Below are positions 10,064 through 53,130 of a stretch of 64,000 nt of DNA, piece after piece. The stretch comes from Escherichia coli (lineage in GTDB: Bacteria; Pseudomonadota; Gammaproteobacteria; Enterobacterales; Enterobacteriaceae), in the NCBI RefSeq assembly GCF_051903065.1, contig NZ_CP178438.1, one strand, 5' to 3'. The notes beneath the pieces are model-generated. The model did no database searches. It was given only the letters and a program-made list of their open reading frames with translations, and was not told where the DNA came from. The translations under genes were made by a program, and so were the position numbers. How positions within the stretch are numbered: position 1 is the first letter of the stretch; every line of letters starts with the position of its first letter.

Positions 10064-10094
10064 AGGCCACCTTCTAATAGGTGGCTTTTTTATT
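10064..10094 (+). terminator. rho-independent terminator
   Basis: AGGCCACC-TTCTAATA-GGTGGCTT stem-loop followed by TTTTTATTTT. Confidence 0.6.
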
Positions 10095-10106
10095 TTCGGA
10101 GTGTAT

Positions 10107-11435
10107 ATGACGTGGAAAGACAGGCTTCAGGATGCGTCATTTCGAGGTGTGCCGTTTAAGGTTGAAGAAGAAAGTGCGGGAACCGGCCGTCGTGTGGAAA
10201 CACACGAATATCCGAACCGCGACAAACCCTATACCGAAGATCTGGGAAAAGTCACTTTCCGCCCGTCCATCACGGCTTATGTGGTGGGAGATGACTGCTT
10301 TGACCAGCGCGATCGCCTGATTGACGCGCTGAATAAACCCGGTCCCGGCACGCTTGTCCACCCGACATACGGTGAGTTGAAAGTCTGTGTTGACGGGGAA
10401 GTTCGGGTCAGCACATCGAAGAGTGAAGGGCGTATTGTCCGCTTTGACCTGAAGTTTGTCGAAGCGGGAGATCTCTCTTACCCCACATCAGGCGTGGCGA
10501 CGGCGCAGACGCTGATGTCATCCTGTTCTGCACTGGATGACTGCATCAGTGACAGCTTCAGCGGTTTCAGTATCGATGGCGTGGCGGATTTTGTGCAGAA
10601 CGACGTTATCGGTAATGCCAGCACAATGCTTGGGTATGTTTCTGATGCGATGAAAGTGGTGGATTCTGCCGTATCGGATGCCGCCAGGCTGTTGCAGGGT
10701 GATATCTCGGTACTTCTGCCGCCGCCATCGTCAGGCAAAAATTTCGTTGAGCAGGTGCAGAAAATGTGGCGTACCGGGAAACGCCTTTATGGTAACGCCA
10801 GCGACCTGGTCACCATGATCAAAACGCTTTCCGGTGTCAGCCTCGGCAGCGATCTGCAACCGCGCGGCGTCTGGAAAACGGACAGTAAAACCACCGCCAC
10901 GGCGACGCAGCAGCGTAACGTGGTTGCCAGCACCCTTCGTACGACCGCAATCAGCGAAGCGGCGTATGCCGTCATCCGATTGCCTGCGCCAACAACTTCC
11001 GCGGTGATGCAGAATGCCACAGTGGGGCAGGCAACAACACCCGCGCAGAGCACTGGCTGGCCTTCCGTCACGCATCCGGCACTGAACAATGCACCGGCGG
11101 TGAAAAACACGGTTGACCTGCCGACGTGGGAAGAACTGACTGACATTCGCGACACACTGAATACGGCAATTGATAAGGAGTTGTCCCGTACAACCAGCGA
11201 TGCGCTGTTTCTGGCGCTGCGCCGGGTGAAAGCAGATCTGAATGCGGATATCAACACGCGCCTTGAACAGTCTGCACGGATCATTCAGCGCACACCGGAT
11301 GAGGTTTTACCCGCGCTGGTGCTGGCGGCGACCTGGTTTGATAACGCGGCGCGTGACGCGGACATTATCCGGCGTAATGCCATTACGCATCCCGGCTTTG
11401 TGCCGGTGATCCCTCTGAAGGTGCCAGTGCAATGA
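10107..11435 (+). CDS. DNA circularisation protein (Mu gp43-like tail protein)
   Basis: ATG at 10107 five nt after GGAG; N-terminal region resembles the DNA-circulation family; position after tape measure as in Mu-like tails. Confidence 0.7.
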   Translation: MTWKDRLQDASFRGVPFKVEEESAGTGRRVETHEYPNRDKPYTEDLGKVTFRPSITAYVVGDDCFDQRDRLIDALNKPGPGTLVHPTYGELKVCVDGEVRVSTSKSEGRIVRFDLKFVEAGDLSYPTSGVATAQTLMSSCSALDDCISDSFSGFSIDGVADFVQNDVIGNASTMLGYVSDAMKVVDSAVSDAARLLQGDISVLLPPPSSGKNFVEQVQKMWRTGKRLYGNASDLVTMIKTLSGVSLGSDLQPRGVWKTDSKTTATATQQRNVVASTLRTTAISEAAYAVIRLPAPTTSAVMQNATVGQATTPAQSTGWPSVTHPALNNAPAVKNTVDLPTWEELTDIRDTLNTAIDKELSRTTSDALFLALRRVKADLNADINTRLEQSARIIQRTPDEVLPALVLAATWFDNAARDADIIRRNAITHPGFVPVIPLKVPVQ

Positions 11436-12511
11436 ACGACAATGTCACGCTACGGGTAAATGGCCGGGAGTGGAATGGCTGGACATCGGTGCGCATCGGT
11501 GCCGGTATTGAACGGTTGGCGCGGGATTTCAGTGTGGAGATCACCCGCCAGTGGCCGGGTGATGAGGGTATTACCACGCTTCAGCCGCGCATTAAAAACG
11601 GTTCAAAAGTGGAGGTGCTGATTGGTGATGAGCTGGTGATCACCGGCTGGGTGGAGGCGACGCCCGTTCGTTACGATGCCCGTTCGGTCAGCACCGGTAT
11701 TGCCGGACGTAGTCTGACGGCTGACCTGATTGACTGTGCAGCCGAACCGACACAGTTTAACGGACGATCACTGGTACAGATTGCGCAGGCGCTTGCTGCG
11801 CCCTTCGGCATTGAGGTGGTGAACAGCAGTGCGCCGTCGGGTGTTATTCCTGATGTCCAGCCTGATCACGGTGAAACGGTGATCGAGGTGATTAACAAAA
11901 TACTCGGTCAGCAGCAGGCGCTGGCTTATGACGACCCGCACGGCAGGCTGGTGATTGGCGGTATTGGCTCAACGCGGGCACATACCGCGCTGGTACTCGG
12001 GGAAAACATCCTTTCCTGCGATACGGAGAAGAGTATCCGGGAGCGATTTTCTGTTTACCAGGTGGCGGGGCAGCGTGCCGGAAACGACGATGATTTCGGT
12101 GAGGCCACCACCACCGCGCTGCGGGCCCGCACAGAGGACGCATTTATTGCCCGTTACCGTCCGATGTATATCAGGCAGACAGGGCAGGCTACGGGGGCAG
12201 GTTGTATTGCCCGTGCGGACTTTGAAGCCCGACAACGGGCGGCGCGGACGGATGAAACCACCTATGTGGTGCAGGGCTGGCGACAGGGTAACGGTACGCT
12301 GTGGCAGCCCAACCAGCGGGTGATTGTCTTTGATCCGGTCTGTGGTTTCGACAATACCGAACTGCTTGTCTCGGAAGTCACGTTTACTCAGGACCAGAAT
12401 GGCACCCTGACGGAAATCCGTGTCGGCCCACCTGATGCTTATCTGCCTGAACCCGAAGCCCCCGGCGCGCGGAAAAAGAAAAAAGCCAGAGTACAGGAGG
12501 ACCCGTTCTGA
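11432..12511 (+). CDS. baseplate hub / tail protein (Mu gp44, P2 gpD-like)
   Basis: 359-aa ORF, overlapping start (ATGA), Mu-like baseplate gene order. Confidence 0.6.
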   Translation: MNDNVTLRVNGREWNGWTSVRIGAGIERLARDFSVEITRQWPGDEGITTLQPRIKNGSKVEVLIGDELVITGWVEATPVRYDARSVSTGIAGRSLTADLIDCAAEPTQFNGRSLVQIAQALAAPFGIEVVNSSAPSGVIPDVQPDHGETVIEVINKILGQQQALAYDDPHGRLVIGGIGSTRAHTALVLGENILSCDTEKSIRERFSVYQVAGQRAGNDDDFGEATTTALRARTEDAFIARYRPMYIRQTGQATGAGCIARADFEARQRAARTDETTYVVQGWRQGNGTLWQPNQRVIVFDPVCGFDNTELLVSEVTFTQDQNGTLTEIRVGPPDAYLPEPEAPGARKKKKARVQEDPF

Positions 12512-13059
12512 TGAAGGCGATTGAAACCATACAGCGACAACTCCTCGGCCTGATTGGGCGGGCGGTGGTGAAAAGCATCAGTGCCGCCACGAAATGTCAG
12601 ACCGTGGATGTGTCCCTGATTGCCGGTGAACCCAAAGCCGGGGTTGAACATCTTGAACCCTACGGTTTTACCGCAAGGGCAAACAGCGGTGCGGAAGCGG
12701 TGGTGTTGTTTCCGGATGGTGACCGTTCTCATGCGGTGGTTGTTACGGTGTCGGACCGGCGCTACCGCCTGAAAGGGCTGCAGACGGGTGAGGTGGCTGT
12801 CTATGACGATCAGGGGCAGTCCGTGACGCTGACCCGGGCGGGGATCGTGGTGGACGGTGCAGGGAAAACGATCACGTTTCGCAATGCGCCTAAGGCTCGT
12901 TTTGAAATGGACCTGGAAGTGACCGGACAGGTGAAAGACCTGTGCGACTCCAGCGGCACCACCATGTCAGCGATGAGGCTTGCCTATAACGGGCATCGTC
13001 ACAGAGAGAACGGTCAGGGCAGTAACACCGACAAACCTGATAAAGCGATGGAGGCATGA
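12511..13059 (+). CDS. baseplate assembly protein V (spike)
   Basis: 182-aa ORF, gpV-like sequence, synteny. Confidence 0.65.
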   Translation: MKAIETIQRQLLGLIGRAVVKSISAATKCQTVDVSLIAGEPKAGVEHLEPYGFTARANSGAEAVVLFPDGDRSHAVVVTVSDRRYRLKGLQTGEVAVYDDQGQSVTLTRAGIVVDGAGKTITFRNAPKARFEMDLEVTGQVKDLCDSSGTTMSAMRLAYNGHRHRENGQGSNTDKPDKAMEA

Positions 13060-13484
13060 TGGAACTGTGGCTGACGGTGAACGGTAAACGCACCTGCGCC
13101 AGCGCACCGCTGGATCCGCTGACCCGTGCCGTGGTGATTTCCATGTTCACCTGGCGGCGGGCTGAACCTGATGACAATGCCGACGTCCCGATGGGATGGT
13201 GGGGGGATACCTGGCCTGCGGTACAGAATGACCGTTACGGCTCCCGACTGTGGCTGCTTCAGCGCAGCAAACTGACCAATCAGCTGGTGCAGACGGTAAG
13301 GGGGTATATCCGCGAATGCCTGCAATGGATGATTGATGATGGCGTGGTGTCCCGTATTGATCTGGATATCCGCCGCACCGGGATTAATGAACTGGGTAAC
13401 AGTATCACTCTCTGGCGTCGTGACGGACCGGTAATGATTTCTTTTGATGATCTGTGGAGTGCGATAACGCATGGCGGACAGTGA
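13056..13484 (+). CDS. baseplate protein (Mu gp46 / gpW-gp25-like)
   Basis: 142-aa ORF, overlapping start, synteny. Confidence 0.55.
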   Translation: MMELWLTVNGKRTCASAPLDPLTRAVVISMFTWRRAEPDDNADVPMGWWGDTWPAVQNDRYGSRLWLLQRSKLTNQLVQTVRGYIRECLQWMIDDGVVSRIDLDIRRTGINELGNSITLWRRDGPVMISFDDLWSAITHGGQ

Positions 13485-14529
13485 ATTTCAGCGTCCGACG
13501 CTGGCAGAAAATATCAGTATGCTCCGTAACGATTTATTCGCCAGGCTGGATGTCAGCGACACGCTCCGGCGCATGGATGAAGACGTGCGGGCAATGGTGT
13601 ATGCGGCGGCGCTGCATACGGTTTACGGGTACATCGATTATCTGGCAATGAACATGCTGCCTGACCTGTGCGATGAGTCCTGGCTGGCGCGACATGCTGC
13701 GATGAAACGGTGTCCGCGCAAGGGGGCCACGGCTGCCAGCGGGTATATGCGCTGGGAAGGTGTCAGCGATGGCCTGAAGGTGACCGCCGGGAGTGTTATT
13801 CAGCGCGATGACCTGGTGCAGTACACGGCAACTGCCGATGCAACCAGCTCCGGTGGTGTCCTGCGCGTGCCGATCGCCTGCTCAAGTGCAGGCGCGGTCG
13901 GTAACGCTGACGACGGTACGGCATTAATCCTGGTCACGCCGGTGAATGGTCTGCCGTCTTCCGGTGTGGCTGACACCCTGACAGGCGGATTTGATACTGA
14001 AGAGCTGGAAACGTGGCGCGCCCGCGTCATTGAGCGGTATTACTGGACGCCGCAGGGCGGGGCTGACGGGGACTATGTCGTCTGGGCTAAAGAAGTGCCC
14101 GGCATTACCCGCGCATGGACATACCGTCACTGGATGGGAACGGGGACTGTCGGTGTGATGATTGCCAGCAGCGACCTGATTAATCCCATTCCGGAAGAAT
14201 CAACGGAAACGGCGGCAAGACAACATATCGGGCCACTGGCTCCGGTGGCAGGCTCTGATTTGTATGTGTTCAGGCCGGTGGCACATACGGTGGATTTTCA
14301 TATCCGCGTTACGCCGGATACACCGGAAATACGAGCCGCCATCACCGCGGAGTTGCGTTCGTTCCTGTTGCGTGATGGTTATCCGCAGGGAGAACTGAAG
14401 GTATCGCGTATCAGTGAGGCGATTTCCGGTGCAAACGGGGAATACAGCCATCAGTTGCTTGCACCGGCGGACAATATCTCCATTGCAAAAAATGAACTGG
14501 CGGTTCTGGGGACGATTTCATGGACGTGA
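13471..14529 (+). CDS. baseplate J-like protein (Mu gp47)
   Basis: 352-aa ORF, synteny between gpW-like and gpI-like genes. Confidence 0.7.
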
Positions 14530-15104
14530 CAAACGATGATTACATCCGTCTGTTGTCGGCACTGTTGCCCCCCGGTCCGGCGTGGTCAGCCAGCGATCCG
14601 GCGATTGCCGGTGCGGCACCTTCATTAACTCGTGCTCATCAGCGTGCGGATGCCCTGATGCGGGAGCTGGATCCGCGCACCACCACTGAACTGATAAACC
14701 GCTGGGAGCGTCTGTGCGGTCTGCCGGATGAATGTATTCCCGCAGGGACACAGACCCTTCGCCAGCGTCAGCAACGGCTGGATGCGAAGGTTAACCTGGC
14801 GGGCGGCATCAACGAGGATTTTTATCTTGCACAGCTTGCTGTCCTGGGCAGACCAGATGCCACCATCACGCGATACGACAAAAGCACGTTCACCTGCTCA
14901 TCGGCCTGTACTGACGCTGTGAACGCGCCTGAATGGCGGTATTACTGGCAGGTCAACATGCCAGCCGCCACCAACACCACCTGGATGACATGTGGCGATC
15001 CCTGTGATTCCGCACTGCGTATCTGGGGCGACACAGTTGTCGAATGTGTGCTTAACAAACTCTGCCCGTCGCATACCTACGTAATTTTTAAATATCCGGA
15101 GTAA
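14520..15104 (+). CDS. tail protein (Mu gp48 / P2 gpI-like)
   Basis: 194-aa ORF, synteny immediately upstream of tail fibre gene. Confidence 0.6.
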
Positions 15105-15107
15105 TCC

Positions 15108-15833
15108 ATGCATCGTATAGACACGAAAACCGCGCAGAAGGATAAGTTCGGCGCGGGTAAGAACGGTTTTACCCGTGGTAACCCCCAGACCGGCACGCCT
15201 GCCACCGATCTGGATGATGACTACTTTGACATGTTGCAGGAGGAGCTTTGCAGCGTTGTGGAGGCGTCCGGTGCCAGCCTGGAGAAGGGGCGGCACGACC
15301 AGCTACTTACCGCGCTTCGCGCGCTGCTGTTAAGCCGCAAGAATCCGTTTGGCGATATCAAATCGGATGGCACGGTGAAAACGGCTCTCGAAAACCTTGG
15401 TTTGGGGGAAGGCTCTGCGTTGCCCGTTGGTGTACCTGTTCCGTGGCCCTCAGCCACACCGCCAGCAGGGTGGCTGAAATGTAACGGCGCAGCATTTTCT
15501 TCTGAAATGTACCCCAATCTGGCAAAGGCTTATCCTACAAATAAATTACCGGATTTACGCGGTGAGTTTATTCGTGGCTGGGATGATGGGCGTGGAGTGG
15601 ATAGTGGGCGCGCGTTATTATCAACTCAAACAGATGAATTTAAATCACATAGTCATTATTTCGAAAGAACATGGGCACAAACTGGATTTGATACAACAGG
15701 TGGATATTATCTTTTAGCCGCTGATGTTTCTGGCTCAGTAAATCAACAGAGATCCGATAGCACTAACTCGGTGGGGGGGAGAGAATCTCGCCCTCGTAAT
15801 ATTGCATTTAACTATATTGTGAGAGCTGTGTAA
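15108..15833 (+). CDS. tail fibre protein; constant N-terminus (15108-15397) joined to variable C-terminus inside the invertible segment
   Basis: 241-aa ORF; crossover site lies inside the ORF at 15392-15403; followed by tail fibre assembly gene. Confidence 0.65.
15392..15403. other. left invertase crossover site (AAACC-TT-GGTTT)
   Basis: Dyad-symmetric site resembling gix/cix/hix; inverted copy at 17301-17312. Confidence 0.5.
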
Positions 15834-16435
15834 TGGATAATGCTGTATTAAATAGCGAACATATTGCTACGAAGGCTGGAAATGTTACTGTTTATAACTT
15901 TGACGGTGAAACGCGAGAGTATATTTCCCCATCTATTGAATATATTGCCGTTGGTGTCGGTATTCCGGCATATTCATGTTTAGATGCTCCTGCCACACGT
16001 AAAGATGGTTATGCAATTTGCCGTTCTGCAGATTTTAACTCATGGGAATATGTGCCAGACCATCGCGGTGAAACGGTCTATAGCACTGAAACAGGAGAAT
16101 CAAAAGAAATCACAGCTCCGGGTGATTACCCTGAAAATACAACCACTATCTCCCCATTAACGCCATACGATAAATGGGATGGTGAGAAATGGGTGACCGA
16201 TACTGAAGCACAGCATAGCGCCGCAGTAGACGCGGCAGAAGCACAGCGCCAGTCACTGATTAATGCTGCAATGGCTTCCATTAGTCTGATTCAGCTGAAA
16301 TTACAGGCCGGACGGAAACTGACGCAGGCAGAAACAACCCGGCTTAACGCTGTGCTGGATTACATTGACGCGGTGATGGCAACAGATACCAGCACCGCGC
16401 CGAATGTCATCTGGCCTGAACTGCCGGAGGCGTAG
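15833..16435 (+). CDS. tail fibre assembly protein (current orientation)
   Basis: 200-aa ORF overlapping tail fibre stop; Tfa-like. Confidence 0.6.
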   Translation: MDNAVLNSEHIATKAGNVTVYNFDGETREYISPSIEYIAVGVGIPAYSCLDAPATRKDGYAICRSADFNSWEYVPDHRGETVYSTETGESKEITAPGDYPENTTTISPLTPYDKWDGEKWVTDTEAQHSAAVDAAEAQRQSLINAAMASISLIQLKLQAGRKLTQAETTRLNAVLDYIDAVMATDTSTAPNVIWPELPEA

Positions 16436-16850
16436 GCCATTCAATATCTGGAGCACTGGAGGGATCAACCAGTTCCAGTGCGTCCAGATAATCCAGCCAT
16501 AAATTATATTGTTCCAGCTCGTCACCTTTCAGACGACCAATAGCAGCTTTGCCAGGCCACTGATGGGTATTGATGTAGGTATTGGCTTCTGAAACCAAAG
16601 ATATTTTTTTCATTTCAGCCGTCAATACCTCATCCTCTTTTGAAGGTGGTGGGGAATTAATCCATACTGGCCGTCCTGAACTGTCAGCGCCAATTTCTTT
16701 CCCTTCTGGATGCAGCCCAAGAAATTGCTCATATATTTCTCTGGTAATTTCAATAACATCATCAGGAAGCGTTCCCGCATCCTCATATTCTGGAAATAAT
16801 TCTTGCAGATAAAAACTTTTACTTCCGGGTGAAAAGAATACTGAGTTCAT
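16407..16850 (-). CDS. alternative tail fibre assembly protein (inverted copy)
   Basis: 147-aa ORF on opposite strand, convergent with 15833-16435; C-terminus similar in character (EWPxPP motif). Confidence 0.55.
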   Translation of the reverse strand: MNSVFFSPGSKSFYLQELFPEYEDAGTLPDDVIEITREIYEQFLGLHPEGKEIGADSSGRPVWINSPPPSKEDEVLTAEMKKISLVSEANTYINTHQWPGKAAIGRLKGDELEQYNLWLDYLDALELVDPSSAPDIEWPTPPAVQAR

Positions 16851-16852
16851 TC

Positions 16853-17307
16853 TTACCGTCCAATGATTAACGCTGATACGCTGGTATCTGAAGGAAAGGC
16901 TGCATTCAGTGGTTTGTCGACTTTGAACACAATCGTATTATTCCCCCTGACAGCGGCAAAAGAACAAGCCGCCGTCGCGTATGAACCTGTAATATTACTG
17001 GATACACCACCATAAGCTGTTGTTGATACCAGAGGGATAACGCCCAGCACCTTATTAGGAAATACAAAGGGCAATGTGGCTGTGGCAATATAAGACTTAT
17101 TAGAGCCTGTAATGGCATAAGCATTATCAGTCATTCCATTCATCGCCACTGGACCGCTTATACTTACAGTAACCATCTGAATGATTAGCCCGTCAGGTTG
17201 ACGAATCACAAAATTTCCATTGCCACCAGTAACCGTCCAGAAAGACATATCAGGGATTTGGTTTTCCCCGTTGCCCACATTCCGTTTTGCCGCTTCTCCC
17301 AAACCAA
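16853..17307 (-). CDS. alternative tail fibre variable C-terminal segment (promoterless until inversion)
   Basis: ORF open on minus strand up to the right crossover site; no independent start expected. Confidence 0.5.
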
Positions 17308-17312
17308 CGTTT
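17301..17312. other. right invertase crossover site (AAACC-AA-CGTTT)
   Basis: Inverted repeat of the site at 15392-15403. Confidence 0.5.
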
Positions 17313-17373
17313 ATGAAAATGCAGAAATAACGAGCAAATGGCATCATTCCTGCTTTTGTCAGGGAGATCTACC

Positions 17374-17928
17374 ATGCTTATTGGCTATGTACGTGTGTCA
17401 ACAAATGACCAGAACACAGATCTACAACGTAATGCGCTGAACTGTGCAGGATGCGAGCTGATTTTTGAAGACAAGATAAGCGGTACAAAGTCCGAAAGGC
17501 CGGGACTGAAAAAACTGCTCAGGACATTATCGGCAGGTGACACTCTGGTTGTCTGGAAGCTGGATCGGCTAGGGCGTAGTATGCGGCATCTGGTCATTCT
17601 GGTTGAGGAGTTGCGCGAACGTGGCGTTAATTTTCGCAGCCTGACGGATGCTATTGATACCAGCACACCGATGGGGCGTTTTTTCTTTCATGTGATGGGT
17701 GCCCTGGCTGAAATGGAACGAGAACTGATTGTTGAACGAACAAAAGCTGGACTGGAAGCTGCTCGCGCACAGGGACGAATTGGTGGACGTCGTCCCAAAC
17801 TTACACCAGAACAATGGGCGCAGGCCGGGCGATTAATTGCATCAGGCGTTCCTCGCCAGAAGGTGGCGATCATCTATGATGTTGGTATATCGACACTGTA
17901 TAAGAAGTTTCCGGTCGGAGATAAATGA
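17374..17928 (+). CDS. site-specific DNA invertase, serine recombinase (Pin/Gin/Hin family)
   Basis: N-terminus MLIGYVRVSTNDQNTDLQ with catalytic Ser; AGGGAG RBS; C-terminal HTH; located beside the invertible segment. Confidence 0.9.
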   Translation: MLIGYVRVSTNDQNTDLQRNALNCAGCELIFEDKISGTKSERPGLKKLLRTLSAGDTLVVWKLDRLGRSMRHLVILVEELRERGVNFRSLTDAIDTSTPMGRFFFHVMGALAEMERELIVERTKAGLEAARAQGRIGGRRPKLTPEQWAQAGRLIASGVPRQKVAIIYDVGISTLYKKFPVGDK

Positions 17929-17966
17929 AACCGTAGCACGTCGTATGCAAGATCGTGCTGCGGTTT
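17928..17966. repeat. hairpin-forming repeat A (13-bp arms, 13-nt loop), probable terminator-like element
   Basis: AAACCGTAGCACG-N13-CGTGCTGCGGTTT directly after invertase stop; imperfect direct copy at 18947-18983. Confidence 0.5.
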
Positions 17967-17985
17967 ATGCTTATCACTTAAAGAC

Positions 17986-18855
<870 letters not shown>

Positions 18856-19470: not shown

Positions 19471-21306
19471 GTGAAACGACTACAATCATTAAAAGAAGCA
19501 AAAACAAAACCAGACTTGGCTAAGCTATTAGGAATCAAACCTTCAGCGTTAACATACTGCCTATATGTATTAAAACCTGAAAATCAATACACACAGTTTA
19601 AGATACCAAAAAAAAATGGCGGCGAACGGATAATAAGTGCACCTAACGGAATATTAAAGACGATACAGTCATCCTTATCAAGACTGCTTCTAGATTGCTT
19701 AGACGAAATAGTTTGCATTAAGTTTCCAGACTCAGAGTTAGCAAGGCAGAAAGCAAAAAACTCAAAAATATTAAAGTTAAAATGTTCCAACTCAGAAATC
19801 AAACAACCCTCACTGTCTCATGGATTTGAAAGAAAGCGTTCAATTATTACAAATGCAATGATGCACTTGGGGAAAAAATATGTTTTTAATATAGACTTGG
19901 ATAATTTTTTCGGCAGTTTTAACTTTGGTAGAGTCCGAGGTTTTTTCATAAAAAATAGAAACTTTGCACTCGATCCGGAAATCGCAACTGTAATTGCTAA
20001 AATTGCGTGCTACAACAATGAACTACCCCAAGGCAGCCCATGCTCCCCAGTAATCACTAATCTAATCACTCACTCGTTAGACATTAAACTGGCAGCGATT
20101 GCATCAAGAAACTCATCCACTTTTACAAGATATGCTGATGATATTACATTCTCTACGAGGAAGGGGGAGTTTCCTTCTGCTATAGCAAAAAATCAAAATG
20201 GTAAATATATCGTTAGTAAGAAAATTAGGGGCGAGATAACTCGCTCAGGTTTTATAATTAATGATGGGAAGACAAGAAATCAGTATAAAGACTCGAGGCA
20301 AGATGTAACAGGCTTAGTGGTTAATAAAAAGCCAAACACGAAAAAAGAATATTGGAGGCTTGTGCGTGCGCAATGTGACCATTTATTTAAACATGGTGAG
20401 TTCTTAGAGGTGATTGACGGCAAGGAAATAAAGGGGAATGTTAATAGCCTTGCAGGCAAACTTAACTTCATAGACCAAGTTGACCACTATAATAGATTGC
20501 GTCAAGGCGAAAAATTAAATCCAAAATATCACTTAAAAAAAGATGCCAATAAAAATGGCCATGCCAAAAAAAGGCGTTACTTACATAGTTCTAGAGAAAA
20601 AACGTTTAGTGAGTTTCTCTTCTATCGTTTATTTTATGGCAATGAATTACCAACAATTCTTACGGAAGGTAAAACTGACAATATTTATCTGAAGGCAGCA
20701 ATACATAAGTTAGCCTCATCATTCCCTAATTTGGCGGTCGCTGAAAGTCCAGGGCTCTCTTATAAGCCACGGACTAAATTTGTTAACTACAATGAGCGGA
20801 CAAAATATTTACTTGAACTTTATGGTGGTGCTGATTATTTAAAGGATTTTGTTATTCATTATAAACAACACTTTAATCGTTATAAGGCTCCCAAACCATC
20901 TAATCCAGTAATTATACTTGTTGATAATGATAGCGGACCAAAAGATCTGATTAATTACGTTAGTAAAGTTGATAATATTGGTATTTTCCCCACAGGTGTT
21001 CCAGATATCCGCGCCTCTGAGTTTGTACATATTTTTTGTAATCTTTATTTAGTGCTTACCCCTCAAGTTAAGGGATATACAGGAACTGATATAGAGCATT
21101 TTTTTAAAGATACAGATCGACTTAGACCACATAAAGGTAAGTTTTTCAATACAGTCTCTAAGCGTGATCATGATAATGATTTGAGCAAGGAATCTTTCGC
21201 AACTCATATTGTTCATGCCCACAAGCATGAAATTGATTTTAGTGGATTTACAAGCCTGTTAGAACGGTTAGTAAAAGTCATAAATCACTTTGACACTGTT
21301 AAGTAA
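19471..21306 (+). CDS. retron-type reverse transcriptase fused to a C-terminal Toprim domain (Retron-Eco2/Ec67-like architecture)
   Basis: 611 aa; NAMMH (NAxxH) at about 128-132, motif A NIDLDNFF, QGSPCSP, YADD at 221-224, VTG at 279-281; C-terminal TEGKTD and DND motifs suggestive of Toprim; GTG start after AGAGG. Confidence 0.8.
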   Translation: MKRLQSLKEAKTKPDLAKLLGIKPSALTYCLYVLKPENQYTQFKIPKKNGGERIISAPNGILKTIQSSLSRLLLDCLDEIVCIKFPDSELARQKAKNSKILKLKCSNSEIKQPSLSHGFERKRSIITNAMMHLGKKYVFNIDLDNFFGSFNFGRVRGFFIKNRNFALDPEIATVIAKIACYNNELPQGSPCSPVITNLITHSLDIKLAAIASRNSSTFTRYADDITFSTRKGEFPSAIAKNQNGKYIVSKKIRGEITRSGFIINDGKTRNQYKDSRQDVTGLVVNKKPNTKKEYWRLVRAQCDHLFKHGEFLEVIDGKEIKGNVNSLAGKLNFIDQVDHYNRLRQGEKLNPKYHLKKDANKNGHAKKRRYLHSSREKTFSEFLFYRLFYGNELPTILTEGKTDNIYLKAAIHKLASSFPNLAVAESPGLSYKPRTKFVNYNERTKYLLELYGGADYLKDFVIHYKQHFNRYKAPKPSNPVIILVDNDSGPKDLINYVSKVDNIGIFPTGVPDIRASEFVHIFCNLYLVLTPQVKGYTGTDIEHFFKDTDRLRPHKGKFFNTVSKRDHDNDLSKESFATHIVHAHKHEIDFSGFTSLLERLVKVINHFDTVK

Positions 21307-21365: not shown

Positions 21366-21869
21366 TTATTGATAGTGTTTTATGTTCAGATAATGCCCGA
21401 TGACTTTGTCATGCAGCTCCACCGATTTTGAGAACGACAGCGACTTCCGTCCCAGCCGTGCCAGGTGCTGCCTCAGATTCAGGTTATGCCGCTCAATTCG
21501 CTGCGTATATCGCTTGCTGATTACGTGCAGCTTTCCCTTCAGGCGGGATTCATACAGCGGCCAGCCATCCGTCATCCATATCACCACGTCAAAGGGTGAC
21601 AGCAGGCTCATAAGACGCCCCAGCGTCGCCATAGTGCGTTCACCGAATACGTGCGCAACAACCGTCTTCCGGAGCCTGTCATACGCGTAAAACAGCCAGC
21701 GCTGGCGCGATTTAGCCCCGACATAGCCCCACTGTTCGTCCATTTCCGCGCAGACGATGACGTCACTGCCCGGCTGTATGCGCGAGGTTACCGACTGCGG
21801 CCTGAGTTTTTTAAGTGACGTAAAATCGTGTTGAGGCCAACGCCCATAATGCGGGCTGTTGCCCGGCAT
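21366..21869 (-). CDS. insB: IS1 InsB
   Basis: 167-aa ORF matching the remembered IS1 InsB sequence. Confidence 0.9.
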
Positions 21870-22063
21870 CCAACGCCATTCATGGCCATATCAATGATTT
21901 TCTGGTGCGTACCGGGTTGAGAAGCGGTGTAAGTGAACTGCAGTTGCCATGTTTTACGGCAGTGAGAGCAGAGATAGCGCTGATGTCCGGCGGTGCTTTT
22001 GCCGTTACGCACCACCCCGTCAGTAGCTGAACAGGAGGGACAGCTGATAGAAACAGAAGCCAC
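21788..22063 (-). CDS. insA: IS1 InsA
   Basis: 91-aa ORF matching the remembered IS1 InsA sequence (zinc-finger CPSC...CSHC). Confidence 0.9.
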
Positions 22064-22382
22064 TGGAGCACCTCAAAAACACCATCATACACTAAATCAG
22101 TAAGTTGGCAGCATCACCCCCTTTTCGTATATGCTAACCGTGAGCGGGAGTGAACAAGTCACCATAGCCAGGAACACTAGCGGCGTAATTCTTAAGCTGA
22201 GTGGCATTTCACCTGCGGTTTATCAGTGCATTCATAGTACCTTCATCAGCCAGATTGAACGAGTCAGCTTAGAATTTGCTGGCGAGGTTGTCACTATGAA
22301 GCATGAGAGTTACCTCAATGTTTATATAAGGATTCGGTCCCCATACCTGGAACGGTAACTCTCAATCTGATCGGTTCCTGAG

Positions 22383-24071
22383 TCAGTTCAAATCACGACT
22401 CATTTTTTTCGCTCTCACCGGCATCCCATTTGCCACAAAATATCCCGCCGTGCTCCTCGGCAACGCTCCCTGTCCACGAATCATGTCCGCTATTTTCTCG
22501 CCAATCATAATTGTCGTGGCGTTCAAATTCCCGGTGATAATCTGCGGCATAATTGACGCATCCACCACGCGCAGGCCTTCCAGCCCATGCACGCGGCCTT
22601 CGCCGTCAACCACTGCCATCTCGTCATAACCCATTTTGCAGGTACCGCACGGGTGGAAGGCGGTTTCGGCGTGGTTACGCACGAACTCATCGAGTTGCTC
22701 ATCCGTCTGACATTCCGTGCCGGGGCTGATTTCGCGGCCACGATACTGATCCAGCGCCGGTTGATGCATGATCTCGCGGGTGATGCGAATTGCGTCGCGG
22801 AACTCCTGCCAGTCCTGCTCGTGCGACATGTAGTTAAACAGAATCGCCGGATGCTGGTGCGGGTCGCGGGATTTAATCCGCACATGCCCACGGCTTGGCG
22901 AGCGCATCGATCCGACGTGGCACTGGAAGCCGTGCTCTTTCACTGCATTCGAGCCGTTATAGTTAATCGCTACCGGCAGGAAGTGATACTGAATATTCGG
23001 CCACGCAAATTCCTCTCGGCTGCGAATAAATCCGCCTGCTTCAAAGTGGTTGCTGGCACCAACGCCGGTGCCGCCAAACAGCCACTCCGCACCGATTTTC
23101 GGCTGATTCCACCACTGCAGGGCAGGGTAGAGGGAAACCGGTTCTTTGCACTCATATTGCAGATACATCTCCAGATGATCCTGAAGATTTTCACCGACGC
23201 CGGGTAAATCATGCACCAGCGGAATATCAAACTCCGCCAGCAGTTCAGCGCTACCCACGCCGGAACGTTGCAGGATCTGCGGAGAGGCGATCGCACCTGC
23301 ACATAACAGCACCTCTTTATTCGCTGTCGCGCGGGTTGGAATGGTGCTGTCGCCTTCCTGCCACTCGACGCCCACCGCGCGTTTGCCGTCAAAAATGATG
23401 TGATCGGTCATAGCGCGAGTACGAATGGTCAGGTTAGGGCGCGATTTGGCCTGATCGAGATAGCCGCGCGCGGTACTGGCGCGACGGCCCTGCGGCGTGA
23501 CGGTGCGATCCATCGGACCAAAACCTTCCTGCTGATAACCGTTGAGATCGTCCGTGCGCGGGTAGCCCGCCTGCACGCCCGCTTCAATCATCGCTTCAAA
23601 CAGCGGATTGACGCCGGGTTTGGAGGTAGTGACGCTCACCGGGCCATCGCCACCGTGGTAGTCGTTCTCGCCCACATCGCGAGTCTCGGCCTTGCGGTAG
23701 TAGGGCAGGCAGTCGAGATAACTCCAGTTCTCCAGACCGGGTTCTTGCGCCCAGTTATCGAGATCCAGCGCATTGCCACGGATGTAGCACATGCCGTTGA
23801 TCAGCGACGATCCACCCAGACCTTTACCGCGTCCGCACTCCATGCGGCGGTTATTCATAAACGGTTCAGGTTCCGTTTCATAGGCCCAGTTGTAGCGTTT
23901 ACCCTGTAGCGGGAATGCCAGGGCAGCGGGCATCTGGGTGCGGAAGTCAAAGCGATAGTCCGGGCCGCCCGCTTCAAGCAGCAGCACGGAGGTATTCGGA
24001 TCTTCAGTCAGACGGGTAGCGAGAACGTTGCCGGCTGAGCCGGCACCAATAATGATGTAGTCAAATTGCAA
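22383..24071 (-). CDS. betA: choline dehydrogenase
   Basis: Translation matches BetA ([20 protein letters not shown]...); apparent TTG start 5 nt after AGGAGG, because the supplied ORF extends upstream without an in-frame ATG. Confidence 0.9.
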
Positions 24072-24084
24072 ATAAACCTCCTGG

Positions 24085-25557
24085 TTAGAATATGGACTGG
24101 AATTTAGCCATCTCAACCTGGATGGACTTCACCTGGGTGTAACTCTGGAGCGTCATCACGCCGTTCTCGCGACCAATGCCGGAGTGTTTGTAGCCGCCAA
24201 CGGGCATCTCTGCCGGGGATTCGCCCCAGGTGTTGATCCAGCAAATACCCGCTTCCAGCTGATGAATGACGCGATGCGCGCGGTTCAGGTCCGCCGTCAC
24301 GATTCCCGCCGCCAGGCCGTAGTCGGTATCGTTAGCGCGGCGAATGACTTCCTCTTCCGACTCGTAGGTCAGAATGGACATCACCGGCCCGAAGATCTCT
24401 TCACGCACGATGGTCATCTCGTCGCTGCAATCGGTGAACACGGTCGGTGCAACCCATGCGCCGTTATCGAGGCCATCGCCTTTCAGTACATCGCCGCCGC
24501 ACAGTACGCGCGCGCCTTCCTCTTTGCCTTTGGCGATATAGCGCAGCACGTTATCGCGATGCGGGAAGCTGACCAGCGGGCCGAAGTTAGTTTGCGGATC
24601 GAAAACGTCGCCCGCGCGAATGCGCTCAACGCGCGCCAGAATTTTCTGCTCAAATGCGGCTTTGCATTTCGCCGGAACGAAGACGCGGGTGCCATTGGTA
24701 CACACCTGACCGGAGCTGAAGAAGTTTGCCATCATGGCGATATCGGCGGCGAGATCGAGATCCGCATCATCGAAAACGATCAGCGGTGATTTACCGCCCA
24801 GTTCCATGGTCACTTCTTTCAGGGAAGAGGCCGCCGAGTTAGCCATCACTTTTTTGCCGCTGGCGACACCGCCGGTAAATGAAACTTTGGCAATGCCCGG
24901 ATGCTCGGTCAGATATTGCCCGGTCTCCGCGCCCACGCCCGGCAACACGTTAAATACGCCGTCCGGCAGGCCCGCTTCGCTGTAAATTTCAGCCAGCTTT
25001 AACGCGGTAAGCGGGGTGACTTCGCTCGGTTTGAAAATCATTGCGTTGCCTGCCGCCAGCGCCGGGGCGGATTTCCACAGGGCAATCTGGATCGGGTAGT
25101 TCCATGCGCCAATCCCCGCCACCACGCCCAGCGGTTCGCGGCGGGTATAAACAAATGACGTCTCACGCAACGGGATCTGGCTGCCTTCCAGCGCCGGGAT
25201 CAGCCCGGCGTAGTACTCCAGCACGTCCGCACCGGTAACGATATCGACGGTTGAGGTTTCCGAATATGCTTTTCCGGTGTCGAGGGTTTCCAGTTTTGCG
25301 AGTTCGTCATTGCGTTCACGCAGAATATCAACGGCCCGACGCAGAATACGCGAGCGTTCCATAGCGGTCATCGCCGCCCAGATTTTTTGCCCCTGTTGGG
25401 CACTCTTCACGGCGCGATCGACATCCTCACGCCCGGCGGCCTGCACGGTCGCCAGCACGTTACCGTTGGCCGGGTTAATGGTCTCGAAAGTGCGACCGCT
25501 GGTGGCGGAGGTATAACCACCATGTATATAAAGCTGCTGTTCTGCCATTCGGGACAT
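24085..25557 (-). CDS. betB: betaine aldehyde dehydrogenase
   Basis: Translation matches BetB ([15 protein letters not shown]...), aldehyde dehydrogenase family. Confidence 0.9.
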
Positions 25558-25570
25558 CACGTCTCCTCGG

Positions 25571-26158
25571 TTAATCGGTGGGTAAATGCTGAGTAATAAA
25601 GTGACGGGTCAGCGAGTGTGCGAGAGGTTTATCCAGCGGTTTGCCGCTCAGTGCCGCGCGCAGCCATAATCCGTCAATCAGCGCGGCAAGGCCGTAGCCC
25701 GCTTCCTGTGCCTGGTGGCGCGGCAATTCGCGGCGAAACTCGCTCACCAGATTCGACAGCAAGCGGCGGCTGCTGACCTGCTGTAAACGATAGAGCATCG
25801 GCTGATGCATACTGCTGGCCCAGAACGCCAGCCAGGCTTTCATCGCCGCACTGCTCACCTGCGTTTCATCGAAGTTTCCGCCAACAATCGCCTGTAATCG
25901 CTGCTCAGCACTGCCCTGCGGAAGTGCATGTAATCGATTCAAAACCGCGTCACGCAGCTGACTGGTGATATCGCGCATGGTTGCTTCCAGCAGACCATTT
26001 TTGTCCCTGAAATAGTGGCTGATGATCCCCGTAGAAACGCCTGCACGGCGGGCGATCTGCGCGATCGTTGCATCGTGCATGCCCACTTCATTTATTGCTT
26101 CCAGCGTGGCGTCGATCAGTTGTCTGCGCCGGATCGACTGCATCCCCAATTTGGGCAT
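25571..26158 (-). CDS. betI: TetR-family repressor of the bet regulon
   Basis: Translation from [14 protein letters not shown] matches BetI. Confidence 0.9.
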
Positions 26159-26286: not shown

Positions 26287-28320
26287 ATGACAGACCTTTC
26301 ACACAGCAGGGAAAAGGACAAAATCAATCCGGTGGTGTTTTACACCTCCGCCGGACTGATTTTGTTGTTTTCCCTGACAACGATCCTGTTTCGCGACTTC
26401 TCGGCCCTGTGGATTGGCCGCACGCTGGACTGGGTTTCTAAAACCTTCGGTTGGTACTATCTGCTGGCGGCAACGCTCTATATTGTCTTTGTGGTCTGTA
26501 TCGCTTGTTCGCGTTTTGGTTCGGTGAAGCTCGGGCCAGAACAATCCAAACCGGAATTCAGCCTGCTGAGTTGGGCGGCGATGCTGTTTGCTGCCGGGAT
26601 CGGTATCGATCTGATGTTCTTTTCCGTAGCCGAACCGGTAACGCAGTATATGCAGCCGCCGGAAGGCGCGGGACAGACGATTGAGGCCGCGCGTCAGGCG
26701 ATGGTCTGGACGCTGTTTCACTACGGCTTAACCGGCTGGTCGATGTATGCGCTGATGGGCATGGCGCTCGGATACTTTAGCTATCGTTATAATTTGCCGC
26801 TCACCATCCGCTCGGCGCTGTACCCGATCTTCGGTAAACGGATTAACGGGCCGATAGGTCACTCAGTGGATATTGCAGCGGTGATCGGCACTATCTTCGG
26901 TATTGCCACTACGCTCGGTATCGGTGTGGTGCAGCTTAACTATGGCTTGAGCGTACTGTTTGATATTCCCGATTCGATGGCGGCAAAAGCGGCACTGATC
27001 GCCTTGTCGGTGATAATCGCCACTATCTCGGTGACATCCGGTGTCGATAAGGGCATTCGCGTGTTATCGGAGCTTAATGTCGCGCTGGCGCTGGGATTGA
27101 TCCTGTTCGTGTTGTTTATGGGCGACACTTCGTTCCTGCTTAATGCACTGGTGCTGAATGTTGGCGACTATGTGAATCGCTTTATGGGCATGACGCTCAA
27201 CAGTTTTGCCTTCGACCGTCCAGTTGAGTGGATGAATAACTGGACGCTCTTCTTCTGGGCATGGTGGGTGGCATGGTCGCCGTTTGTCGGCTTGTTCCTG
27301 GCGCGTATCTCGCGTGGGCGTACCATTCGCCAGTTCGTGCTGGGCACGTTGATTATTCCGTTTACCTTCACGCTGTTATGGCTCTCGGTGTTCGGCAATA
27401 GCGCGCTGTATGAAATCATCCACGGCGGCGCGGCATTTGCAGAGGAAGCGATGGTCCATCCGGAGCGCGGCTTCTACAGCCTGCTGGCGCAGTATCCGGC
27501 GTTTACCTTTAGCGCCTCCGTCGCCACCATTACTGGCCTGCTGTTTTATGTGACCTCGGCGGACTCCGGGGCGCTGGTGCTGGGGAATTTCACCTCGCAG
27601 CTTAAAGATATCAACAGCGACGCCCCCGGCTGGCTGCGCGTCTTCTGGTCGGTGGCGATTGGCCTGCTGACGCTCGGCATGCTGATGACCAACGGGATAT
27701 CCGCGCTGCAAAACACCACGGTGATTATGGGGCTGCCGTTCAGCTTTGTGATTTTCTTCGTGATGGCGGGGTTGTATAAATCTCTGAAAGTAGAAGATTA
27801 CCGCCGTGAAAGTGCCAACCGCGATACCGCGCCGCGACCGCTGGGGCTTCAGGATCGCCTGAGTTGGAAAAAACGTCTCTCGCGCCTGATGAATTATCCG
27901 GGCACGCGTTACACTAAACAGATGATGGAGACGGTCTGTTACCCGGCAATGGAAGAAGTGGCGCAGGAGCTGCGGTTGCGCGGCGCGTACGTGGAGCTAA
28001 AAAGCCTGCCGCCGGAAGAGGGACAACAGTTGGGGCATCTGGATTTGTTGGTGCATATGGGCGAAGAGCAAAACTTTGTCTATCAGATTTGGCCGCAGCA
28101 ATATTCGGTGCCGGGCTTTACCTACCGCGCACGTAGCGGTAAATCGACTTACTACCGGCTGGAAACTTTCCTGTTAGAAGGCAGCCAGGGCAACGACCTG
28201 ATGGACTACAGCAAAGAGCAGGTGATCACCGATATTCTTGACCAGTACGAGCGGCACCTTAACTTTATTCATCTCCATCGTGAAGCGCCGGGCCATAGCG
28301 TGATGTTCCCGGACGCGTGA
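26287..28320 (+). CDS. betT: choline transporter (BCCT family)
   Basis: 677-aa ORF matching BetT. Confidence 0.9.
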   Translation: MTDLSHSREKDKINPVVFYTSAGLILLFSLTTILFRDFSALWIGRTLDWVSKTFGWYYLLAATLYIVFVVCIACSRFGSVKLGPEQSKPEFSLLSWAAMLFAAGIGIDLMFFSVAEPVTQYMQPPEGAGQTIEAARQAMVWTLFHYGLTGWSMYALMGMALGYFSYRYNLPLTIRSALYPIFGKRINGPIGHSVDIAAVIGTIFGIATTLGIGVVQLNYGLSVLFDIPDSMAAKAALIALSVIIATISVTSGVDKGIRVLSELNVALALGLILFVLFMGDTSFLLNALVLNVGDYVNRFMGMTLNSFAFDRPVEWMNNWTLFFWAWWVAWSPFVGLFLARISRGRTIRQFVLGTLIIPFTFTLLWLSVFGNSALYEIIHGGAAFAEEAMVHPERGFYSLLAQYPAFTFSASVATITGLLFYVTSADSGALVLGNFTSQLKDINSDAPGWLRVFWSVAIGLLTLGMLMTNGISALQNTTVIMGLPFSFVIFFVMAGLYKSLKVEDYRRESANRDTAPRPLGLQDRLSWKKRLSRLMNYPGTRYTKQMMETVCYPAMEEVAQELRLRGAYVELKSLPPEEGQQLGHLDLLVHMGEEQNFVYQIWPQQYSVPGFTYRARSGKSTYYRLETFLLEGSQGNDLMDYSKEQVITDILDQYERHLNFIHLHREAPGHSVMFPDA

Positions 28321-36581: not shown

Positions 36582-37046
36582 GCCGGATGCGGCGTGAACG
36601 CCTTATCCGGCCTACGAATGGCGCAAGAATCTGTAGGCCTGATAAGCGTAGCGCATCAGGCATTTGTCACCATTGCCGGATGCGGCGTGAACGCCTTATC
36701 CGGCCCACGAATGGCACGAGAATCTGTAGGCCTGATAAGCGTAGCGCATCAGGCATTTGTCACCATTGCCGGATGCGGCGTGAACGCCTTATCCGGCCTA
36801 CGAATGGCGCAAGAATTGTAGGCCTGATAAGCGTAGCGCATCAGGCATTTGTCACCATTGCCGGATGCGGCGTGAACGCCTTATCCGGCCCACGAATGGC
36901 ACGAGAATTTGTAGGCCTGATAAGCGTAGCGCATCAGGCATTTGTCACCATTGCCGGATGCGGCGTGAACGCCTTATCCGGCTTACGAGTGGCACGAGAA
37001 TTTGTAGGCCTGATAAGCGTAGCGCATCAGGCAATTTGGCGTTGGT
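36582..37046. repeat. tandem REP/BIME array, 5 units of about 93 bp
   Basis: Five near-identical tandem units each containing GCCGGATGCGGCGTGAACGCCTTATCCGGCCTAC and GTAGGCCTGATAAGCGTAGCGCATCAGGC palindromic units. Confidence 0.85.
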
Positions 37047-47569: not shown

Positions 47570-47868
47570 GTTGTATTCGACAACCGATGCCTGATGCGCC
47601 GCTGACGCGACTTATCAGGCCTACGGGGTGTACTGAACTGTAGGTCGGATAAGACGCATGGCGTCGCATCCGACAACCGATGCCTGATGCGTCGCTGACG
47701 CGACTTATCAGGCCTACGGGGTGAACTGAACTGTAGGTCGGATAAGACGCATGGCGTCGCATCCGACAACCGATGCCTGATGCGCCGCTGACGCGGCTTA
47801 TCAGGCCTACGGGGTGTACTGAACTGTAGGTCGGATAAGACGCATGGCGTCGCATCCGACAACAATCT
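47570..47868. repeat. tandem REP/BIME array, about 3 units
   Basis: Three about 100-bp tandem units containing GCCTGATGCGCCGCTGACGCGACTTATCAGGCCTAC and GTAGGTCGGATAAGACGCATGGCGTCGCATCCGAC. Confidence 0.8.
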
Positions 47869-52486: not shown

Positions 52487-53130
52487 ATTGTCGGATGCGT
52501 CGCGTGGCGCATCCGACACCATGCGCAGATGCCTGATGCGACGCTGACGCGTCTTATCATGCCTACAGGCCTGAACCGTAGGTCGGATAAGGCGCTCGCG
52601 CCGCATTCGACACCATGCGCCGATGCCTGATGCGACGCAGGCGCGTCTTATCATACCTACAGGCCTGAACCGTAGGTCGGATAAGGCGCTCGCGCCGCAT
52701 TCGACACCATGCGCCGATGCCTGATGCGACGCAGGCGCGTCTTATCATGCCTACAGGCCTGAACCGTAGGTCGGATAAGGCGCTCGCGCCGCATCCGACA
52801 CCGTGTGCCGATGCCTGATGCGACGCTGGCGCGTCTTATCATGCCTACAGGCCTGAACCGTAGGTCGGATAAGGCGCTCGCGCCGCATCCGACACCGTGC
52901 TCAGTGCCTGATGCGACGCTGATGCGTCTTATCATGCCTACAGGCCTGAACCGTAGGTCGGATAAGGCGCTCGCGCCGCATTCGACACCATGCGCCGATG
53001 CCTGATGCGACGCAGGCGCGTCTTATCATGCCTACAGGCCTGAACCGTAGGTCGGATAAGGCGCTCGCGCCGCATCCGACACCATGCTCAGTTGCCTGAT
53101 ACGACGCTGGCGCGTCTTATCATGCCTACC
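52487..53130. repeat. tandem REP/BIME array, about 7 units
   Basis: Seven tandem copies of the GCGTCTTATCATGCCTACAGGCCTGAACCGTAGGTCGGATAAGGCGCTCGCGCCGCATCCGACACC unit between prpE and codB. Confidence 0.85.

Follow-up and report, generated by a model that had tools for sequence, protein, structure and literature searches.

TTG as the start codon of betA in Escherichia coli and neighbouring genera, and two C-terminal forms of BetA

Introduction

Does betA of this Escherichia coli strain begin at TTG, and does the codon carry any meaning if it does? The question arises from the window analysed here, a stretch of 64,000 nucleotides in which the initial annotation opened betA at TTG where ATG was expected, and in which it considered either a natural variant or a sequencing difference. 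In E. coli, ~3% of known genes open with UUG, which incorporates methionine and supports 10-100% of the initiation obtained with AUG (bioRxiv 10.1101/063800). We read the start site from the reverse complement, compared it with K-12 and thousands of other E. coli genomes, and scanned related genera for the same junction.

Results

The betA gene and its operon

The window carries the betI-betB-betA operon with divergent betT, in the same order as in K-12.

22383..24071, minus strand: betA, choline dehydrogenase, 562 aa plus TGA stop (ORF read, TIGR01810, Pfam)
24085..25557, minus strand: betB, betaine-aldehyde dehydrogenase, upstream in the same operon (ORF read and 23CRST031 annotation)
25571..26158, minus strand: betI, repressor, first gene of betIBA (23CRST031 annotation and junction sequence)
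26287..28320, plus strand: betT, choline transporter, divergently transcribed (ORF list and 23CRST031 annotation)

The betA reading frame spans 1689 nt (562 codons) and closes at a TGA at 22385..22383. Its product reaches 1030.3 bits with TIGR01810, the NCBIfam equivalog model for betA (cut-off 732.1), with model positions 1-532 of 532 aligned to residues 4-537, which bears out the gene name first given to it; position 4 of PRK02106 aligns to residue 1. Both Pfam domains of the GMC family are present, GMC_oxred_N (PF00732, E = 7.8e-64) over residues 3-300 and GMC_oxred_C (PF05199, E = 2e-41) over residues 393-524, together with the FAD-binding GxGxxG motif, here GAGSAG at residues 9-14. Judging by its 98.6% identity to K-12 BetA, the protein would oxidise choline to betaine aldehyde.

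The junction between betI and betB reads TAA CCGAGGAGACGTG ATG, with the same 13-nt gap as that between betB and betA. Both internal junctions of the operon (25557-25573 and 24069-24087, minus strand) share TAA, CC, a GGAG-type ribosome-binding site (RBS) and this gap, the betI-betB sequence being TAACCGAGGAGACGTGATG and the betB-betA sequence TAACCAGGAGGTTTATTTG. The mechanical ORF list opens betB at GTG 25560, one codon ahead of the annotated ATG 25557.

The start of betA in the window

24069..24071, minus strand: betA TTG start codon (direct read; equal to the annotated K-12 b0311 start)
24077..24082, minus strand: Shine-Dalgarno sequence AGGAGG of betA, 5-nt spacer before TTG (direct read, pairing energy)
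24085..24087, minus strand: betB TAA stop, 13 nt ahead of the betA start (direct read)

On the minus strand, from the reverse complement of the window, the start lies at 24071..24069 and the sequence reads ATA TTC TAA CC AGGAGG TTTAT TTG CAA TTT GAC TAC ATC ATT ATT GGT GCC GGC TCA GCC GGC, so that the junction runs in the order TAA, CC, AGGAGG, TTTAT, TTG. The coordinates first reported for this codon are therefore exact, and only the strand had been left unstated. The strong, well-spaced RBS described with it also holds up: AGGAGG is predicted to pair with the 3' end of 16S rRNA at -11.0 kcal/mol across a 5-nt spacer, while only 0.6% of 3000 random window positions reach -9 kcal/mol or better. 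The TTG thus has what genuine UUG-initiated E. coli genes have, a Shine-Dalgarno sequence at functional spacing.

The same codon opens the reference gene. In K-12 MG1655 (NC_000913.3) the junction of betA (b0311, NP_414845.1) is identical to that of the window (TAACCAGGAGGTTTATTTGCAATTTGAC, TAACCAGGAGGTTTATTTGCAATTTGACTAC), and the RefSeq coding sequence begins at the same TTG. The alignment that had been suggested as a check on the expected ATG therefore returns TTG, the normal codon of this gene.

A census of 5426 complete E. coli genomes, in which 5183 records hold the betB-betA junction, extends this result to the species. The 71-nt junction of the window is exact in 5096 of these 5183 records, and a 32-mer around the start is matched in at least 5177 of them; a match here means 28 or more consecutive identical nucleotides, and each 28-nt seed of the 32-mer contains the RBS, the spacer and the TTG. 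Replacing TTG by ATG in the 71-mer gave no exact match among the 5183 records, all of which matched at one mismatch or more, and the GTG version gave the same outcome. In each of eight other E. coli genomes that we fetched, PGAP likewise opens betA with this TTG. Since the K-12 reference and the E. coli census carry the same codon, TTG is ordinary for betA, and already known; it agrees with reference annotation and is conserved among orthologues.

Two further observations came from the census. About 246 of the 5426 complete genomes lack any betA match, and ten betA matches fall on plasmid-classed records, including a 231-kb record of JM109 and a 214-kb record of K-12 C3026, which we presume to be F' episomes.

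We conclude that translation of betA almost certainly begins at the native, reference-shared TTG at 24071-24069, which is neither a mutation nor a sequencing artefact. A literature search for the betA start codon, or for an experimental BetA N-terminus or initiation mapping, returned nothing specific, 'betA' being inseparable from 'beta' in the index; the assignment accordingly rests on annotation, conservation and the exclusion of alternatives.

TTG starts in neighbouring genera

We scanned one genome per species with a DNA pattern for the N-terminal motif of BetA and recovered 120 loci, 118 of them outside E. coli. At 17 of these 118, betA starts with TTG behind (A/G)GGAGG, the GGAGG core being invariant in all 17.

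Enterobacter: E. cloacae, E. asburiae (two strains), E. sichuanensis, E. mori, genomosp. O, sp. BIGb0383 and a MAG
Pseudocitrobacter faecalis, Lelliottia nimipressuralis and two Citrobacter
Klebsiella oxytoca, a Klebsiella MAG, Raoultella ornithinolytica, R. planticola and one unclassified MAG

At none of the 17 loci does a second in-frame ATG, GTG or TTG lie between the FDYIIIG motif and the stop upstream of it. Like the window, Enterobacter, Klebsiella, Raoultella, Citrobacter, Lelliottia and Pseudocitrobacter have the TTG and a GGAGG RBS directly after the betB stop, and their BetA proteins are 87-96% identical to that of the window; they differ from it in length (554-558 aa) and in C-termini that end ...PVRR and similar. 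Klebsiella and Raoultella retain TTG and GGAGG although their spacer is TCATTT and not the TTTAT of the window.

The remaining loci, from more distant genera, all show ATG when their upstream sequences are read. An automatic start picker scored ATG at 100 of the 118 non-E. coli loci, and one further locus was scored GTG, which we take as a mis-pick, an ATG lying directly upstream there too. Genera with ATG include Trabulsiella, Pluralibacter, Kosakonia, Cedecea, Pantoea, Erwinia and Tatumella, as well as Xenorhabdus, Pseudomonas, Halomonas/Vreelandella, Salinicola and Acinetobacter. In Pantoea, Erwinia, Xenorhabdus, Pseudomonas, Halomonas and others the same N-terminal motif follows a few codons past the start, which, unlike in the window, is ATG and often adds 1-6 N-terminal residues.

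How the UUG may be read, and what it may mean

At this site the initiator tRNA would read the betA UUG as formyl-methionine, and the consensus AGGAGG, 5 nt upstream, would position the 30S subunit on it. Because the betA RBS begins 2 nt past the betB stop, ribosomes that end betB can probably reinitiate on betA, a form of translational coupling. A UUG, intrinsically weaker than AUG, combined with a maximal RBS may then set the output of BetA relative to BetB. We also considered an mRNA structure at the junction that would hide the RBS by pairing it with upstream betB. The 101-nt fold at the betB-betA junction (-26.8 kcal/mol, z = -1.28) is no better than those of shuffled sequences, 21 of 200 of which fold at least as well, and such a hairpin is not distinguishable from chance.

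Whether the codon has any regulatory meaning is a separate matter from its being the start. Persistence of TTG across genera is notable on the face of these comparisons. We give an even chance to the reading that TTG is the true start without regulatory meaning, a neutral substitution fixed in the ancestor of Escherichia, Enterobacter and Klebsiella and not reverted since. The taxa with TTG form a single clade and therefore represent one evolutionary event. That ATG is tolerated is shown by Trabulsiella, which reads ATG CAA where the surroundings are otherwise alike. Across 15 full-length genes from the TTG clade (the window, K-12 and 13 species outside E. coli), only 21 of 210 four-fold degenerate sites do not vary, so chance alone would leave a given site invariant in ~10% of cases. 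Conservation of TTG is consequently no proof of selection, since it concerns one site in one clade and 10% of neutral-like sites are equally invariant.

Two observations pull against neutrality. The TTG stays although the spacer, codon 2 and the synonymous sites around it vary, the four-fold sites of the window being only 47-71% identical to those of the other TTG genera. Every TTG locus also has the strongest RBS, at -11.0 kcal/mol, the 100 ATG loci having a median of -8.4, as compensation for a weak codon would have it, in a comparison that is not phylogenetically independent; because all TTG taxa lie in one clade, we do not count the stronger RBS as evidence of compensation for TTG.

A selective reading goes further. 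The UUG, the maximal RBS and the 13-nt spacing from the betB stop might act as one device that selection has retained in several genera of the Enterobacteriaceae and that holds BetA synthesis below that of BetB so that toxic betaine aldehyde never accumulates, with the six-A/seven-A tract described below as a second, recurrent polymorphism that gives E. coli BetA its two C-terminal forms. We consider this combined proposal doubtful, although it has a real share of the probability.

Other starts, and error in the window

If the start lay elsewhere, either at an upstream TTG (24116) inside betB or downstream, TTG 24071 would be an internal leucine codon. What invites this reading is that the frame is open for 15 codons upstream, as far as TTG 24116. 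That codon has no RBS, however, pairing at -3.8 kcal/mol against -11.0 at TTG 24071, and its use would create a 32-nt overlap with betB; the other genera of the TTG clade have no further in-frame candidate in the 45 nt ahead of theirs. Downstream, the next GTG and the next ATG in frame are residues 29 and 47. Both lie beyond GAGSAG at residues 9-14, so a start at either would lose the GxGxxG motif and destroy the FAD-binding fold, and the family profiles begin at BetA residues 1-4. The missed in-frame ATG for which the initial annotation allowed does not exist, residue 47 being the nearest downstream, and no competing in-frame ATG or GTG gives a complete BetA, either in the window or at the 17 loci of other genera. 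Alternative starts are thus rejected on RBS pairing and on the position of the FAD motif, and we regard the whole reading as very improbable.

A strain-specific change from ATG to TTG, or an error of sequencing or assembly in the window, has for its sole support the prior expectation of ATG (AUG opens ~83% of E. coli genes; bioRxiv 10.1101/063800), and its probability is practically nil. Comparison with K-12 and with the census genomes rules it out, with no exact ATG or GTG junction in any record, and TTG recurs in six other genera.

Two forms of the BetA C-terminus

22403..22409, minus strand: run of seven A's at the betA 3' end (direct read; K-12 has six)

The 3' end of the gene differs from the reference. 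In the window betA ends GCG AAA AAA ATG AGT CGT GAT TTG AAC TGA, giving the tail MSRDLN and a protein of 562 aa (1689 nt), whereas K-12 betA ends GCG AAA AAA TGA, giving ...VRAKK and 556 aa (1671 nt). The extra A shifts the frame past the K-12 stop, so BetA of the window is six residues longer. A C-terminus longer than that of K-12 had been suspected with low certainty from a hand count, and the suspicion was right (562 aa against 556 aa).

An exact 65-mer of the K-12 type at the betA 3' end occurs in 3711 of 5103 E. coli records, and the exact 66-mer of the window type in 89 E. coli records. Among 40 evenly spaced E. coli matches, about seven have seven A's, along with other nearby differences. 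Six genomes were fetched, of which four, O157:H7 TR01 among them, have seven A's and are annotated by PGAP at 1689 nt and two have six A's and are annotated at 1671 nt, with the same TTG start in all six. E. coli O157:H7 TR01 (WP_075842512.1), strain 21B8 and other 562-aa alleles share the TTG, the seven A's and MSRDLN with the window and differ from it in internal sequence. The 562-aa BetA is a real minority allele in E. coli, and both forms are real.

In other genera BetA ends at 554-559 aa with unrelated tails, which favour neither six nor seven A's as the ancestral state in E. coli, and its extreme C-terminus is evidently unconstrained. The extension of six residues is accordingly, on our inference, unlikely to matter functionally.

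An unusual betA allele and its surroundings

The 3' two-thirds of betA (22383-23800, minus strand) is only 92-98.5% identical to K-12 at the DNA level in 200-nt windows, which is unusually divergent within the species; identity is 97-100% at the 5' end of betA and over most of betB and betT. Four-fold sites of betA are 90.5% identical between the window and K-12. Of the 5426 complete E. coli genomes, just 3 match the betA region of the window at 99% identity or more, and the rest are at or below ~97%. Strain ECNB21-M121 is 100% identical in the betA region; strain 23CRST031 encodes the same BetA protein (WP_047625398.1), and the first 25 kb of the window are ~100% identical to it (two gapped positions). 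This pattern suggests that betA of the window is a rare recombinant allele.

Downstream of betA the window has other neighbours than K-12.

19471-21306, plus strand: retron Ec67-family RNA-directed DNA polymerase/endonuclease, 611 aa, at the prophage end (23CRST031 annotation)
21366-22063, minus strand: IS1A transposase with programmed frameshift, directly downstream of betA (23CRST031 annotation)

According to the 23CRST031 annotation, a prophage covers ~1-18800, with terminase, portal, capsid, sheath, tape measure, baseplate, tail fibres and the pinE invertase. Alignable similarity to the ykgH-betA region of K-12 ends ~96 nt past the betA stop, at a junction near 22287, and the block of IS1, retron and prophage therefore replaces the K-12 neighbours. 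No retron msr RNA near 19471-21306 reached the Rfam gathering threshold.

An Rfam scan of the whole window found nothing near betA, and only repeat elements scored as naRNA4 elsewhere. These naRNA4/CssrE elements (RF02564, ~70-77 nt each) exceed the gathering threshold in three tandem clusters of 4, 2 and 5 copies, which we take to be intergenic repeat arrays of the REP/BIME type, ordinary in E. coli.

36636-36983, minus strand: naRNA4/CssrE cluster (Rfam)
47643-47807, plus strand: naRNA4/CssrE cluster (Rfam)
52675-53126, plus strand: naRNA4/CssrE cluster (Rfam)

Discussion

Our analysis confirms the annotated betA start as TTG and finds nothing wrong with the sequence of the window, which in itself matters little. 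What is new here is descriptive: the TTG is fixed in E. coli and kept in neighbouring genera, and BetA exists in forms of 556 and 562 aa. The presence of these two forms in E. coli, set apart by a one-base difference in an A-run, is useful to know when BetA lengths are compared or the gene is cloned. To work on how start codons are selected, the conservation of TTG across genera adds a small example.
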